32,000 nt of DNA, taken from assembly GCA_021735045.1 (NCBI GenBank), contig JAIPHU010000005.1:33811-65810 (forward strand). The letters run 5' to 3'. Each line of letters starts with the position of its first letter. The first letter of the stretch is position 1. Source of the stretch: Candidatus Omnitrophota bacterium. Its GTDB lineage: Bacteria; Omnitrophota; Gorgyraeia; Duberdicusellales; 4484-171. Position numbers and translations under genes: made by a program. The notes below the pieces were generated by a model. That model made no database searches, was not told where the DNA came from, and saw only the letters and a program-made list of their open reading frames with translations. Of the stretch, positions 4,411-22,055 are shown piece by piece.

Positions 4411-4674
4411 CTATTCATAATGCGTCCATAATCGAATAATTTTTATGGTTTTGTATTTTTTTATAATTTGGTAAACTACACGATGCTGAATATTTATTCT
4501 TCGGGAATAAGCCCCTTCCAAGTCCCCTATTAATTTTTCAAAAGGTGGGTGTTTTTGGTAAGGATCTTTTTCTAAAATTTCAAGAATAGCTTCTGCTTTT
4601 GAGCGTAGCCCTGCAGCGGAAAGTTTTTTGGCATCTTTTTGCGCTTGCTTAGTATAGACGAGTTTCCAGCTCAC
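4411..4674 (-). CDS. yoeB: YoeB/Txe-family toxin (ribosome-dependent mRNA interferase)
   Basis: 87 aa. MSWKLVYTKQAQKDAKKL...YSRRINIQHRVVYQI...IKIIRLWTHYE is the characteristic YoeB sequence, including the C-terminal W.HY. There is a 4-nt ATGA overlap with the antitoxin gene. Confidence 0.92.
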   Translation of the reverse strand: MSWKLVYTKQAQKDAKKLSAAGLRSKAEAILEILEKDPYQKHPPFEKLIGDLEGAYSRRINIQHRVVYQIIKKYKTIKIIRLWTHYE

Positions 4675-4913
4675 CAGTTTAGCTTTTTATCGCATTTTTT
4701 AAGAGGAGTTTTTAATCCTTTGCGGATCGATTCCCTCATTTTAGGAATAGAAAGCAAAAATAAAGTTTCTTTAATTGCTCTCCAATCCTCTTGGCTAATC
4801 AGGACAGCATCGTGCCTTTTGCCACTAATTTGGATAGGTTCGTGAGATTCAGCTAATTTATCTAACAATTTATATAATTTTGCTCTTGCTTGGCTTGCTG
4901 TTAAAGTTGTCAT
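4671..4913 (-). CDS. yefM: YefM/Phd-family antitoxin
   Basis: 80 aa. MTTLTASQARAKLYKLLDKLAESHEPIQISGKRHDAVLISQEDWRAIKETL is the canonical YefM N-terminal fold sequence. GGAGGTG SD at 4921-4927. Confidence 0.92.
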   Translation of the reverse strand: MTTLTASQARAKLYKLLDKLAESHEPIQISGKRHDAVLISQEDWRAIKETLFLLSIPKMRESIRKGLKTPLKKCDKKLNW

Positions 4914-10311: not shown

Positions 10312-10384
10312 TGGAGCCGGGGGGATTTGAACCCCCGACCTCAACACTGCCAGTGTTGCGTGCTCCCAACTGCACCACGGCCCC
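10312..10384 (-). tRNA. tRNA-Ala (anticodon GGC)
   Basis: The reverse complement GGGGCCGTGGTGCAGTTGGGAGCACGCAACACTGGCAGTGTTGAGGTCGGGGGTTCAAATCCCCCCGGCTCCA folds as a cloverleaf. It has the G3:U70 Ala identity pair and anticodon loop CUGGCAG. No CCA is encoded. Confidence 0.93.
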
Positions 10385-10551
10385 GTTGAAAATGCAATTA
10401 TATAGCGAATACCTTAATTTTCAACGGCACTAAGCCAAATTCCTTGGCGAAGTGCCTTAGTAACCTAAATAAGATACTTCGTCATTTCATTCCTCAGTAT
10501 CAATTCGATTAGAACTTTTTCTTCGAAAAAGCTAAATCTCATTGAATATTA
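10385..10551 (-). repeat. Conserved structured leader module, copy 1 (unclassified; putative 5' leader RNA of tRNA-Ala)
   Basis: Aligns colinearly with 19225-19388. Long blocks are identical, and the differences are confined to hairpin stems and loops. See findings. Confidence 0.85.
10397..10424 (-). promoter_or_regulatory. Proximal promoter (P2) of tRNA-Ala, nested in an 11-bp inverted repeat
   Basis: Minus strand: TTGAAA (10424-10419), 16-nt spacer, TATAAT (10402-10397). The tRNA 5' end lies about 12 nt further on. Confidence 0.6.
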
Positions 10552-10574
10552 TCATCTCCCTAAGAAATTGTCAA
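10546..10574 (-). promoter_or_regulatory. Distal promoter (P1) of leader module copy 1
   Basis: Minus strand: TTGACA (10574-10569), 17-nt spacer, TGaTAATAT with the -10 at 10551-10546. The same register is seen in copy 2. Confidence 0.55.
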
Positions 10575-10603
10575 TTGACAAAGATAAATAGCATTGTTAT
10601 ATT
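10575..10603 (+). promoter_or_regulatory. Promoter of tRNA-Leu
   Basis: TTGACA (10575-10580), 17-nt spacer, TATATT (10598-10603). The -35 is half of the palindrome TTGTCAATTGACAA, shared with the divergent P1. Confidence 0.6.
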
Positions 10604-10644
10604 AATAATTCACGACAAACTAATCATTAACTATAAGTTAACTC

Positions 10645-10730
10645 GCCGGAGTGGCGGAATGGCAGACGCGCGGGATTCAAAATCCCGTCTTCGCAAGAAG
10701 GTAAGGGTTCAAGTCCCTTCTCCGGCACCA
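10645..10730 (+). tRNA. tRNA-Leu (anticodon CAA), CCA encoded
   Basis: GCCGGAGTGGCGGAATGGCAGACGCGCGGGATTCAAAATCCCGTCTTCGCAAGAAGGTAAGGGTTCAAGTCCCTTCTCCGGCACCA. It has a long variable arm, anticodon loop UUCAAAA and a terminal CCA. Confidence 0.93.
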
Positions 10731-19148: not shown

Positions 19149-19224
19149 TCGGGAGAGCGGGATTCGAACCCGCGACCCCTTGCACCCCATGCAAGTGCGC
19201 TAAGCCAAACTGCGCCACCTCCCG
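19149..19224 (-). tRNA. tRNA-Pro (anticodon GGG)
   Basis: The reverse complement CGGGAGGTGGCGCAGTTTGGCTTAGCGCACTTGCATGGGGTGCAAGGGGTCGCGGGTTCGAATCCCGCTCTCCCGA folds as a cloverleaf. It has C1-G72, as in bacterial tRNA-Pro, and anticodon loop AUGGGGU. No CCA is encoded. Confidence 0.9.
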
Positions 19225-19388
19225 TTGAAAATGCAATTATATAGGGTTATTCTTTCATTTTCAACGGCACTGAACCGACTTCTTCGGCGAAGTGCCTAAA
19301 CACCTAAATGAGATACTTCGTCATTTCATTCCTCAGTATTAATTCGACTAATCCCGGCGTTCCGCCGGGAAAGTCTCATTGAATTCTA
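19225..19388 (-). repeat. Conserved structured leader module, copy 2 (unclassified; putative 5' leader RNA of tRNA-Pro)
   Basis: Colinear with 10385-10551, with the same order of hairpins, mini-ORF and nested promoter. See findings. Confidence 0.85.
19236..19264 (-). promoter_or_regulatory. Proximal promoter (P2) of tRNA-Pro, nested in an 11-bp inverted repeat
   Basis: Minus strand: TTGAAA (19264-19259), 17-nt spacer, TATAAT (19241-19236). Confidence 0.6.
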
Positions 19389-19411
19389 TCATGCTTTATA
19401 AGGGCTATCAA
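19383..19411 (-). promoter_or_regulatory. Distal promoter (P1) of leader module copy 2
   Basis: Minus strand: TTGATA (19411-19406), 17-nt spacer, TGaTAGAAT with the -10 at 19388-19383. The -35 starts 2 nt after the upstream gene's stop. Confidence 0.5.
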
Positions 19412-19412
19412 G

Positions 19413-19883
19413 TTAAATCGCCTTAGCTGTAAAAGAAAATTGCTTAAGCAACTTACCTTGTGTGTAAATTTTTATTTGATATTGGCCTAAAGGGTCCCCT
19501 TTGCTTAACCCCCATACATTGTAAATAATCCCATCTGCTAAATTAGATGATCTTTTAGTGATTGCTTTCTTTCCGTTTCTACTTATTTTTGTTGATTTGG
19601 TAACTAGTAATTTTTTAGGCTTCTCAGGAAAAACAACAACTTCTTCCCAGGATATATCTTTGTCTATCTCCTCGGTTACAATAATCCAGCCAAAACCAAG
19701 ATCATCTTTTAAGGTGATTATTTCTGTCTCTTTAATTTTAGGAATATCGCCTCGATAACCAACTACTAAACCAGATTTTGCTCCCAAAACCTTTACCTGA
19801 TAACCGTTATTAACAGCATATAACCCTAGGCCTAGCAAAATAACAACTGTTATAGTTACTATCATCGGCTTCTTTGATTTCAT
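19413..19883 (-). CDS. Hypothetical membrane-anchored/exported protein (possibly DUF3859-like beta-sandwich)
   Basis: 156 aa with an N-terminal TM/signal (MIVTITVVILLGLGLY). The C-terminal pattern LGFGW...FPEKP...G.Y.IKIY..GKLL..FSF recalls DUF3859 proteins. That assignment is from memory only. Confidence 0.55.
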   Translation of the reverse strand: MKSKKPMIVTITVVILLGLGLYAVNNGYQVKVLGAKSGLVVGYRGDIPKIKETEIITLKDDLGFGWIIVTEEIDKDISWEEVVVFPEKPKKLLVTKSTKISRNGKKAITKRSSNLADGIIYNVWGLSKGDPLGQYQIKIYTQGKLLKQFSFTAKAI

Positions 19884-20975: not shown

Positions 20976-21046
20976 AGCGGGCGAGCGGAGTCGAACCGCC
21001 ATATCTGGCTTGGAAGGCCAGTGTTCTGCCATTGAACTACGCCCGC
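20976..21046 (-). tRNA. tRNA-Gly (anticodon UCC)
   Basis: The reverse complement GCGGGCGTAGTTCAATGGCAGAACACTGGCCTTCCAAGCCAGATATGGCGGTTCGACTCCGCTCGCCCGCT folds as a cloverleaf, with anticodon loop CUUCCAA and discriminator U73. Confidence 0.92.
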
Positions 21047-21047
21047 A

Positions 21048-21132
21048 TGGGCAGGGGAGGATTTGAACCTCCGAAGCGCAAGCGCAACAGATTTACAGTC
21101 TGTCCCCTTTAACCAGACTCGGGAACCTGCCC
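21048..21132 (-). tRNA. tRNA-Tyr (anticodon GUA), long variable arm
   Basis: The reverse complement GGGCAGGTTCCCGAGTCTGGTTAAAGGGGACAGACTGTAAATCTGTTGCGCTTGCGCTTCGGAGGTTCAAATCCTCCCCTGCCCA is the tRNA. Only 1 nt (21047) separates it from tRNA-Gly. Confidence 0.9.
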
Positions 21133-21139
21133 GAAAATA

Positions 21140-21213
21140 AGCCGGCGAGAGGAATCGAACCTCCAACATCCTCATTACAAGTGAGGTGCTCTGCCAGATT
21201 GAGCTACACCGGC
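21140..21213 (-). tRNA. tRNA-Thr (anticodon UGU)
   Basis: The reverse complement GCCGGTGTAGCTCAATCTGGCAGAGCACCTCACTTGTAATGAGGATGTTGGAGGTTCGATTCCTCTCGCCGGCT is the tRNA, with anticodon loop CUUGUAA. Its 5' 10 nt overlap the nnrD 3' end. Confidence 0.9.
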
Positions 21214-22055
21214 AATTTTTTAATAGCCTGGGGCAAATAGTTAATTAAATCAGAAGCTACTACACAACTTTGAGTTTTTTCTTGAGCGGCTAAATCTCCG
21301 GCTAAGCCATGAAGATGCACCCCTAACTTTGTCGCTTCATAACTATTAATACCTTGAGCGATCAAGCCAGCTATCATCCCACTCAATACATCACCGGTTC
21401 CTGCAGTAGCCATAGCTGGATTACCAGTATCATTTTCAAAAACCATCTTCCCATTAGTCACTAGAGTTCTGTGCCCTTTAAGAGCAAGGTTAAGATTATA
21501 TCTAAGAGCAAAGTTTTTCGCAAGTTCTTTTCTGTTTTCTTTAATTTGCCTAATTTTTTTCTTTACCAGTCGAGAAAACTCTCCTAGATGAGGAGTTAAT
21601 ACAATGTTCTGATTATTATTTTTCTTTAACACTTTTAAACTTAAAGAAAGAATATTAAGGCCATCAGCATCTATGACCAAAGGTTTATCCACTTTTTTAA
21701 TTATTTTAATTACTAATTTTTGCGTAGCAGGATGCAATCCAGCTCCTGGCCCTAAAACTAACACGCTAACTTTATCTAAACTTCTCTCTATTGTTTTAAA
21801 GGCTTTAGCCGATAGATGGCCTTTCTTATCCGCCAAAGGAATACTCATTTCCTCGGTTAACTTTATTTCAAATATCGAATGCAAGCTCTCAGCTACTGCT
21901 ACTTTTACCAAACCAGCCCCAATACGTAATGCGGCCTGGGCGCAAAGACAAACTGCTCCGGTTAACCCGGGAGAGCCTCCGACTACAAGAACTTGCCCAT
22001 AACTTCCCTTATGGGTTTCAGGTTTTCTTTTGAGCAACTGCATAAGCGACTGCAT
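21204..22055 (-). CDS. nnrD: ADP-dependent NAD(P)H-hydrate dehydratase (YjeF C-terminal type, no epimerase domain)
   Basis: 283 aa with HKGSYGQVLVVGGS near the N-terminus and the GTGDVLSG motif. Confidence 0.85.
   Translation of the reverse strand: MQSLMQLLKRKPETHKGSYGQVLVVGGSPGLTGAVCLCAQAALRIGAGLVKVAVAESLHSIFEIKLTEEMSIPLADKKGHLSAKAFKTIERSLDKVSVLVLGPGAGLHPATQKLVIKIIKKVDKPLVIDADGLNILSLSLKVLKKNNNQNIVLTPHLGEFSRLVKKKIRQIKENRKELAKNFALRYNLNLALKGHRTLVTNGKMVFENDTGNPAMATAGTGDVLSGMIAGLIAQGINSYEATKLGVHLHGLAGDLAAQEKTQSCVVASDLINYLPQAIKKLPV

Follow-up and report, generated by a model that had tools for sequence, protein, structure and literature searches.

Structured modules upstream of two Omnitrophota tRNA genes as probable copies of a mosaic, promoter-bearing repeat

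The 32,000-nt window analysed here, taken from contig JAIPHU010000005.1 of a Candidatus Omnitrophota bacterium genome (GCA_021735045.1), contains two colinear paralogs of a structured module of about 155 nt, located on the minus strand at 10385-10574 and 19225-19411. Each copy directly abuts a tRNA gene that is recognised by both ARAGORN and Rfam:

10312-10384, minus strand, tRNA-Ala(GGC), abutted by the Ala copy
19149-19224, minus strand, tRNA-Pro(GGG), abutted by the Pro copy

Aligned in the minus sense, 10375-10600 and 19215-19440 are colinear, with a mean column identity of 83%. The 26-mer CTGAGGAATGAAATGACGAAGTATCT occurs exactly twice in the window (0 expected from 100 shuffles), and a 29-nt block around the hairpin HA has the same letters in both copies. 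A preliminary description of this DNA had claimed paralogy with long identical blocks, and the blocks it listed are present in the alignment. Its view that the module has several hairpins and is read, from a sigma-70 promoter, in the tRNA sense also stands: the order in both copies is promoter P1, hairpins H1, HA and HB, and a terminal stem. Folding compared with shuffles gives z = -4.0 and -4.5 for the two copies in the tRNA sense, and z = -4.8 and -5.6 on the opposite strand. The parts of the Ala copy are:

10546-10574, minus strand, P1 of tRNA-Ala-nfo-leuS: TTGACA, 17 nt, TG-n-TAATAT; 10/12 with the TG; predicted start near 10539
10541-10545, minus strand, left junction motif TCAAT
10507-10538, minus strand, H1: lower stem GAUU/AAUC and a 9-bp upper stem with a GAA triloop
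10473-10501, minus strand, HA: closing stem GAUAC/GUAUC around the invariant 20-mer UGAGGAAUGAAAUGACGAAG (10477-10496)
10426-10456, no strand assigned, HB: bipartite hairpin GGCACU..AGUGCC
10385-10425, minus strand, P2 cassette: -35 TTGAAA at 10424-10419, 16 nt, -10 TATAAT at 10402-10397

Those of the Pro copy are:

19383-19411, minus strand, P1 of tRNA-Pro: TTGATA, 17 nt, TG-n-TAGAAT
19346-19375, minus strand, H1: GACU/AGUC and CCCGGCG-GAA-CGCCGGG, fully compensated relative to the Ala copy
19313-19339, minus strand, HA: 20-mer at 19316-19335
19266-19296, no strand assigned, HB: plus-strand sequence ggcacTGAAccgacttcttcggCGAAgtgcc
19225-19265, minus strand, P2 cassette: -35 TTGAAA at 19264-19259, 17 nt, -10 TATAAT at 19241-19236

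Two promoters are therefore predicted per copy. P1, described earlier as TTGACA or TTGATA with a 17-nt spacer and an extended -10, is confirmed at 10574-10546 and 19411-19383, and the P1 of tRNA-Ala also directly precedes tRNA-Ala in relatives without the module. P2 is of the sigma-70 type, scores 11/12 in both window copies and is the best promoter of the region (P1 10/12). In the Ala copy it lies inside the inverted repeat GUUGAAAAU (10425-10417) / AUUUUCAAC (10393-10385), with a predicted start about 6 nt before tRNA +1; the corresponding arms of the Pro copy are 19265-19257 and 19232-19225. Fourteen P2 copies were aligned, from positions before tRNA-Ala, -Pro, -Gly, -Ile, clpP and another protein gene; in most of them -35-like and -10-like hexamers can be read 15-18 nt apart, the scores given above applying to the window copies only. 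With transcription beginning about 7 nt past the -10, the tRNA precursor would have a leader of about 5-6 nt.

This placement of P2 bears on two features of the preliminary description. The 11-bp stem said to run into the tRNA shares its two outer C's with the 3' arm of HB, so that 9 bp are free; in the window copies the terminal stem competes with HB for the two bases needed to reach into the tRNA. The boxA consensus is GCUCUUUAACAA-like. The proposed boxA-like antitermination string, compared with it by eye, is not supported: GUUGAAAAU is the -35 region of P2. An rrn-type antitermination leader (boxB plus boxA) was rejected as a whole, since GUUGAAAAU is both the P2 -35 and a covarying stem arm and the module is absent at orthologous operons.

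HA is predicted to pair as U-A, G.A, A.G, G-C, G.A, A.G, A-U, U-A around a GAA loop, the G.A pairs being read from the letters. It contains a Shine-Dalgarno (SD)-like GAGGA and, 5 nt downstream, the AUG of a 6-codon mini-open reading frame (mini-ORF), MTKYLI, whose peptide is the same in both window copies and in a related locus, L008 (loci outside the window carry L numbers), with one synonymous change. Such a conserved peptide behind a strong SD might suggest a leader-peptide attenuator, with translation of MTKYLI regulating the tRNA operon. This is highly improbable: the SD and the AUG are both paired inside HA, the mini-ORF has no Ala, Pro or Gly codon, and the module contains neither a terminator-like site nor a terminator/antiterminator pair. 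The 6-codon mini-ORF of the preliminary description holds for both window copies, whereas its length and sequence vary in other members of the family, with 7 codons (MTKYFYK) in L006, 22 in L030, 4 in L122 and none in L137. Among the matches listed, the 20-mer opens a real ORF in 3 of 113 distinct occurrences. In two loci, L053 and L072, its AUG opens long ORFs (969 aa, and 393 aa, the latter aminotransferase-like by eye); here the hairpin may have taken the place of the genes' native start region.

Rfam gives the module no name. At the gathering threshold, scans of the window and 25 related loci returned tRNA models alone in the window and tRNA and LSU rRNA models alone in the related loci; E-value scans over the module (up to 10 and up to 1) gave chance-level matches only. 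The preliminary description, which had recognised no named RNA family and no T-box or riboswitch core and had proposed an Rfam scan, is borne out. Several specific motifs were also rejected. A hammerhead ribozyme is represented only by the UGA/GAA tandem G.A half, with no hammerhead model matching at E <= 10. A K-turn or box C'/D' K-loop reading of HA would need a shift of register at the cost of continuity with the covarying closing stem, the arm order of GTTGAAA...TTTCAAC is inverted relative to an integron attC site, and CsrA-type GGA loops are not conserved between copies (all three judged by eye).

Structural conservation is strong. Across eight aligned copies with 42 pairs, 91.5% of paired cells are complementary, against 34-44% with slid partners; both partners have changed in 14 of the 42 pairs, and none of 500 shuffles attains the observed values. 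Both sides have changed in 8 of the 13 pairs of H1, the closing stem of HA varies as GAUAC, GAUCC and AAUAU, and the inverted repeat around P2 covaries between GYUGAAAAU/AUUUUCARC and AUUGAAAAU/AUUUUCAAU (14 aligned copies). Promoter function alone would not explain the covariation of this last repeat. The check for helix covariation and further copies that had been suggested earlier is thus answered positively, with all helices covarying and additional copies found.

As to the strand that folds, wobble counts (G-U 7, A-C 6) indicate neither. The conserved internal loop of HB reads UC/UC in the tRNA sense, and on the opposite strand it forms a tandem G.A context, UGAG..CGAA. HA and HB share the motif N5-TGAG-x-CGAAG-N5' on opposite strands, so that the module has one G.A hairpin per strand. 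The generic plus-strand form of HB, N5-TGAG-hairpin-CGAAG-N5', is degenerate (TAAG) in the window Ala copy and intact in L008, L030, L122, L140 and L142. In Omnitrophota DNA totalling 240 kb there are 16 generic G.A hairpins (about 1.6 in shuffles), every one of them within these cassettes. GAA triloops with a closing C-G pair have notable stability as DNA, and so do tandem mismatches of the Y-GA-R type; this suits folding as single-stranded DNA.

The core N-UGAG-x-CGAA-N', in the context Y-GA-R, resembles known tandem sheared G.A motifs, namely the d(ATGAGCGAAT) duplex, the d(GCGAAGC) mini-hairpin and the hammerhead UGA/GAA stack next to stem II; many relatives have the centre GCGAAGC. Those comparison systems are structural motifs, whereas the module is a genetic element. 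The CUGA half and the cleavage site of the hammerhead are also absent, and the Rfam hammerhead models do not match.

Copies in other Omnitrophota show how the module is distributed. A scan of a genome collection with the core pattern found true copies in two other Omnitrophota metagenome-assembled genomes (L006, L008), and later loci added L010, L030, L122, L137 and L140-L143. The window LeuS is 100% identical to a protein from a Candidatus Omnitrophica metagenome-assembled genome, and in the relatives LeuS is 79-86% identical to it. Two ORFs from the ends of the window, looked up as exact matches, had no record, probably owing to differences in the called start codons. At the tRNA-Ala site the module is missing from five of the seven loci tabulated (window included), where P1, a leader of 18-26 nt and the tRNA are found:

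L134 (LeuS 86%, closest relative): P1, short leader, tRNA; no module
L132 (LeuS 85%): P1, short leader, tRNA; no module
L133 (LeuS 84%): P1, short leader, tRNA; no module
L135 (LeuS 83%): P1, short leader, tRNA; no module
L009 (LeuS 83%): P1, short leader, unrelated insert, tRNA; no module
L010 (LeuS 83%): diverged module variant
Window (LeuS 100%): module

At the tRNA-Pro site, in the one syntenic relative checked (L009), the same P1 as in the window is followed by TTT and tRNA-Pro, with no module. The earlier reading of the module as a conserved leader of these operons is not supported, given such empty orthologous sites. As a separate feature of the Ala locus, L132:8470-8910, L134:3495-3800 and L135:2115-2500 have the divergent tRNA-Ala/tRNA-Leu pair, together with its two promoters, inverted relative to window 10312-10730, and in these three loci tRNA-Leu, not tRNA-Ala, faces nfo-leuS.

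Elsewhere the module occupies other positions. Beside a conserved 520-aa protein, tRNA-Gly(CCC) has it upstream in L008, L030, L137, L140 and L141, that is, in every genome with that arrangement, the neighbouring protein being 73-93% identical among them; in L142 and L143 this locus is cut by contig ends. The rRNA operon at L122:840-1412 has a full module before tRNA-Ile(GAU) and HB plus P2 alone before tRNA-Ala(UGC), both upstream of 23S rRNA, which would imply promoter-like cassettes within an rrn spacer. The tig-clpP spacer measures 14 nt in L137, contains an HB plus P2 cassette ending CATTTTCAAT|GAGGAGG in L142 and L143, and holds a different G.A-hairpin doublet in L136. In L006, H1, HA and P2 without HB stand before a protein gene that is nitroreductase-like by eye. 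Altogether, copies precede five different tRNA genes and two protein genes. The GGN anticodons noted earlier for both abutting tRNAs are a coincidence of the window, because copies also precede tRNA-Gly(CCC), tRNA-Ile(GAU), tRNA-Ala(UGC), clpP and another protein gene.

The window Ala copy is 90% identical to the L008 Gly copy, 78% to the window Pro copy and 70% to the L010 Ala copy at the same locus; judged by these identities, similarity follows neither locus nor genome. As a repeat would lead one to expect, the contigs of L008, L010, L122, L142 and L143 have an end within a module or next to it; that of L133 stops within tRNA-Pro. Within the window, the tRNA-Thr/Tyr/Gly(UCC) cluster (20976-21213) is without the module; it starts at the stop codon of an NAD(P)H-hydrate dehydratase ORF (21204-22055) and has no space for a separate promoter.

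These data allow a cis-acting 5' leader to be weighed, in which the P1 transcript would fold into H1, HA, HB and the terminal stem and would control or aid tRNA maturation, or tune operon read-through, by pairing with tRNA +1 to +4 or by acting as a handle for RNase III or RNase P. The constant orientation with the tRNA, the abutment on tRNA +1 and the compensation of all helices agree with it. So do the covarying terminal stem, which in tRNA-Gly copies can include tRNA +1 to +4 (CCGC/GCGG), the retention at tRNA-Gly(CCC) and the copies before tRNA-Ile and tRNA-Ala(UGC) in the rrn spacer, where processing stems are usual. However, close relatives do without the module at the same tRNA genes, it also stands before protein genes, P2 would yield tRNA precursors without the whole leader, and in the window copies HB also claims the two bases needed for reaching into the tRNA. 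The internal loop of HB is UC/UC in the tRNA sense and G.A/A.G on the other strand, and there is no terminator or antiterminator alternative. Such a leader is rather unlikely; a host-level RNA role of any kind, including a processing handle or a stable leader RNA, is somewhat less so and still doubtful.

The junctions of the copies are informative. All left junctions seen read TTCAAT|GAG(A/G), mostly TTCAAT|GAGAC, and the empty Ala sites of L133 and L009 read ATATTCAAT|AAAC. TTCAAT also exists independently of the module: P2 units end with it, the tRNA-Gly D-loop contains it, and so does the empty Ala leader of L133 and L009. In L030 the module comes after tRNA-Gly nucleotides 1-16. The right end, ..TTTTCA[A/G][C/T], is flush with the gene start, meaning tRNA +1 or, in some relatives, the Shine-Dalgarno sequence. 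Tandem copies in L008 and L137 share one TTCAAT, the end of a P2 unit (..CATTTTCAAT) passing directly into GAGAC.. of the next unit. The sub-units H1, HA, HB and P2 occur in different combinations, and L140 has an H1+HA-like unit downstream of tRNA-Gly that follows CTTAC, not TTCAAT. The left junctions resemble motif-directed insertion, though not a clean one. At L140:9380-9400 the final codons and the stop of thiC (..CTT CAA TGA; L137 has ..CTT AAA TAG) coincide in part with the module's TTCAATGAG, and the repeat apparently supplies the thiC stop codon there.

Two related ideas were rejected. The window copies fail as MITEs (miniature inverted-repeat transposable elements): their ends, GAGAC... 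and ...TTTTCAAC, are not inverted repeats, and no variable target-site duplication is seen, the same TTCAA(T) standing on the left and a similar TTTTCAA on the right of all copies. Inverted ends (GTCATYCTGAG...CTCAGRATGAC) are present in class-A relatives, both in L136 and on other contigs, again with no duplication seen. The 5' half of the module as a decayed tRNA-Gly is no better than shuffles beyond a TTCAATG heptamer (17-181 of 500 score as high).

A separate small RNA (sRNA) gene would have P1 drive an RNA of about 150 nt whose 3' end is made by RNase P, with the stable hairpin HA and its exposed SD-like GAGGA binding a protein or the ribosome in trans. The strong promoter, the stable 5' and 3' hairpins, the identical block around HA and the occurrence of the 20-mer in distant lineages with covarying closing stems, as a ligand-binding motif would have, speak for it. 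It is nevertheless improbable, given that the L140 module begins at the thiC stop codon and lacks a promoter of its own, that a different hairpin replaces the 20-mer in L137, that the 20-mer can have either orientation relative to neighbouring tRNAs and also forms inverted doublets, and that no terminator is present.

A transposon guide-type RNA, similar to omega RNA or bridge RNA and using the 3' flank (the tRNA 5' end) as its guide, is very improbable. A structured RNA ending exactly at the element boundary would suit it, and left junctions always after TTCAAT with a similar right end (..TTTTCAAT/C) recall insertion 3' of a short target without duplication. Against this, gene lists show no TnpB, IscB or IS110-type gene near any copy, Rfam gives no match to IS605-orfB or HEARO-type RNAs, HA and HB are inverted, unlike IS200/IS605 ends, and the L140 H1+HA-like unit follows CTTAC.

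The modules are instead best read, with a probability of roughly 0.6, as copies of a mosaic intergenic repeat family that bears a promoter, belongs to one Omnitrophota clade and varies in presence between genomes, rather than as dedicated tRNA control RNAs. This is preferred because of the empty orthologous sites, the locus-independent similarity, the mosaic and tandem arrangements, the contig ends, P2, the conserved structure, the dispersed 20-mer and the confinement of G.A hairpins to the cassettes. Insertion polymorphism, mosaic make-up, covarying helices and promoter-quality hexamers at the right spacing are direct observations. Firing of P2, and movement of the element by itself rather than by recombination, are inferred.

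In the proposed mechanism, unit A would consist of H1 and HA, with two tandem G.A pairs around the invariant 20-mer, and unit B of HB, with the same G.A motif on the other strand, and P2 within a 9-bp inverted repeat. The repeat would land, or be copied, between a gene and its promoter, with its right end flush with the gene start. P2 would then transcribe the tRNA and the genes behind it and keep the gene expressed. P1, displaced about 155 nt upstream, would read through the element and produce a structured leader that RNase P would remove. The hairpins would be kept for persistence or spread of the element as folded single-stranded DNA or RNA and not for signal sensing. The use of P1 and P2 and the processing by RNase P are predictions.

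Several points weigh against this interpretation. No transposase, RAYT, recombinase or other mobilising gene was found in the window or adjoining any copy: no RAYT gene turned up in the window or in about 1.2 Mb of related loci, Pfam gave no mobile-element gene among ten window ORFs, and inspection by eye of ORFs bracketed by inverted hairpins showed ordinary or spurious ones, none recognisable as a transposase. Neither a target-site duplication nor a clean footprint of excision can be defined, and at the window Ala site the remaining 21 nt of the native leader, expected after simple insertion, are missing. The tRNA-Gly(CCC) module is found in every genome with that tRNA at the locus, and the module could be an old, useful part of the tRNA-Gly(CCC) gene that was copied elsewhere by recombination. 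A host-level RNA function would account equally well for the compensation of all helices, the near-invariance of the 20-mer and the orientation of the module, which is always that of the downstream gene. Finally, the wobble counts give no folding strand.

Known systems share some of these properties. Presence or absence at orthologous sites combined with copies at non-homologous sites is as in mobile repeats, short imperfect palindromes in inverted pairs and mosaics are as in REP, REPIN and BIME sequences, and copies directly before unrelated genes with -35/-10 hexamers at functional spacing are as in promoter-carrying upstream repeats. The module is nevertheless filed as a variant of promoter-bearing repeats and not as a member of a named family, because it lacks the matching terminal repeats and target duplication of MITEs, and no RAYT or TnpA gene, as known from the other classes, was found in the window or the related loci.

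The closest comparison is with the Neisseria REP2 and Borrelia IR repeats, which are about 100-150 nt long, lie directly before unrelated genes and contain a promoter, an SD, an ATG and two internal inverted repeats predicted as stem-loops (PMC3184786). Like them, the module has a promoter (P2), SD plus ATG in HA and several stem-loops directly before a gene. Unlike them, it targets mainly tRNA genes with its right end flush with tRNA +1, and has four to five helices including tandem G.A motifs, mosaic units and no apparent regulon-like gene set; there is no sequence similarity. Correia elements (CREE), promoter-bearing MITEs and "putative mobile promoters" are small non-autonomous repeats 5' of genes with outward promoters, giving homologous upstream regions before non-homologous genes (PMC3184786, PMC3575422); the module differs in having no matching terminal inverted repeats or target-site duplication and in being orientation-specific. 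REP, BIME and REPIN sequences, mobilised by RAYT transposases, are short imperfect palindromes, often in inverted pairs and mosaics (PMC3116915, PMC3733652). The module resembles them in its hairpins with compensatory change and in being intergenic, multi-copy and mosaic. It differs in that no RAYT and no evident GTAG or CGTC tag was found, the HA and HB stems of the window differ and do not pair together, a promoter is carried, and the 20-mer is common to distant lineages, whereas REPs are usually species-specific.

Palindrome-associated elements derived from IS200/IS605 move as folded single-strand hairpins and insert in an orientation-specific manner 3' of a fixed short motif (4-5 nt) without duplication, also in tandem. 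The TTCAAT| junctions are compatible with such insertion. The module differs from this type in several respects: in place of parallel subterminal hairpins, the G.A motifs of HA and HB lie inverted on opposite strands, no TnpA or TnpB gene is near any copy, one unit follows CTTAC and the Ala site is not a clean insertion.

If the repeat interpretation is true, tRNA genes and some protein genes of these bacteria, which are little studied and have small genomes, have their expression rewired by a portable promoter cassette, and regions upstream of tRNA genes are hot spots of small insertions. Covarying "leaders" from comparative RNA searches in such genomes could then be repeats and not regulators, which matters for annotation.

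The 20-mer hairpin extends far beyond Omnitrophota. The sequence TGAGGAATGAAATGACGAAG occurs unchanged in at least 120 metagenome stretches (L012-L131), on contigs of 32-73% GC, and in a genome named Candidatus Wildermuthbacteria (L005:3229-3254), a group of the candidate phyla radiation (CPR). Among the matches listed and in L005 it always lies within a covarying closing stem, the metagenome examples being CAUUC..GAAU, CAUCC..GGAU, UACCC..GG, UACAC..UG and GAUAC..GUAUC. It is often the left arm of an inverted doublet with a right arm ..CTTCG-x-CTCA.. (e.g. GTCATTCTGAG...CTCAGAATGAC), which is a simpler N5-TGAG-CGNAG-CGAAG-N5' hairpin on the other strand, a layout like that of HA and HB.

Contact with tRNA genes recurs in this wider set. 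Among the matches listed, 14 of 109 distinct ones lie within 100 nt of a tRNA gene (4.2 expected), and in six the 3' side of the hairpin meets a tRNA end at a distance of 0-2 nt:

L040:570-591, 20-mer abutting a tRNA end
L111:5270-5289, 20-mer abutting a tRNA end
L068:340-359, 20-mer abutting a tRNA end
L036:3922-3941, 20-mer abutting a tRNA end
L085:118-137, 20-mer abutting a tRNA end
L110:1544-1563, 20-mer abutting a tRNA end

Three of the six are at the 5' end on the same strand and three at the 3' end on the opposite strand; in L040 and L111, bases at or near the tRNA end appear by eye to close the hairpin stem. Seven loci (L040, L061, L074, L076, L086, L091, L124) have a small GIY-YIG nuclease ORF of about 90-120 aa no more than about 150 nt from the hairpin. 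In L124 the AUG of the 20-mer is the start codon of the GIY-YIG gene, and in L040 the UGA of the hairpin is the gene's stop codon.

It may tentatively be suggested, as a rather unlikely extension, that the 20-nt G.A hairpin (UGAGGAAUGAAAUGACGAAG in its covarying stem) is the recognition module of undescribed, cross-phylum small mobile elements that home to tRNA borders and are moved by a single-strand-DNA transposase or by the nearby small GIY-YIG nucleases, the Omnitrophota module being a promoter-delivering derivative. Recurrence of the 20-mer unchanged in very different genomes, often touching tRNA ends, points to a conserved partner, and this recurrence and contact with tRNA gene ends are the part most worth following. 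The first metagenome pattern, TCGAATTNATANTGAGGAATGAAATGA, gave 0 matches, the 39-nt class-A consensus had no match in phage or plasmid collections, and the 20-mer had none in viral contigs. A keyword search of the literature returned no description of the element, and a sequence-based search gave unrelated primer matches only.

Other small inserts also occur at tRNA genes of the clade, which suggests that these genes are a general target of small insertions. Within the 5' part of tRNA-Ala, -Leu(CAA) and -Gly lie inserts of about 115-135 nt that have direct repeats (13-24 nt) of the tRNA 5' end on either side. They contain a hairpin closed as C-GAA(G)-G (CTTGACGAAGTCAAG, CTTGCCGAAGGCAAG, CTTGGCGAAGCCAAG) and, by eye, a promoter-like stretch. 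At tRNA-Ala in L009 (8905-9062) the insert measures 117 nt and lies between copies of a 22-nt direct repeat of the tRNA 5' end, at tRNA-Leu(CAA) in L133 (8464-8603) and L132 (8686-8833) a 13-nt repeat surrounds an insert of about 125 nt, promoter-bearing by eye, and nested inserts are found at tRNA-Gly in L137 (8885-9030). The 3' ends of tRNA-Gly(CCC) (L140:9606-9810, L137:9080-9235) and tRNA-Leu(CAA) are likewise duplicated around inserts of about 65-150 nt, further cases of such 3' duplications being L132:8886-9060 and L134:3775-3925. The 3' insert of L140 contains the H1+HA-like unit, with a different centre (TGAGGAGTGTTAGCGACGAAG), and a piece resembling a tRNA 3' half.

Away from the tRNA genes, window 4411-4913 holds two overlapping small ORFs (87 and 80 aa). 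The corresponding place in L009 is occupied by a toxin-antitoxin pair of the PhdYeFM/YoeB type and by three further toxin-antitoxin-like pairs.

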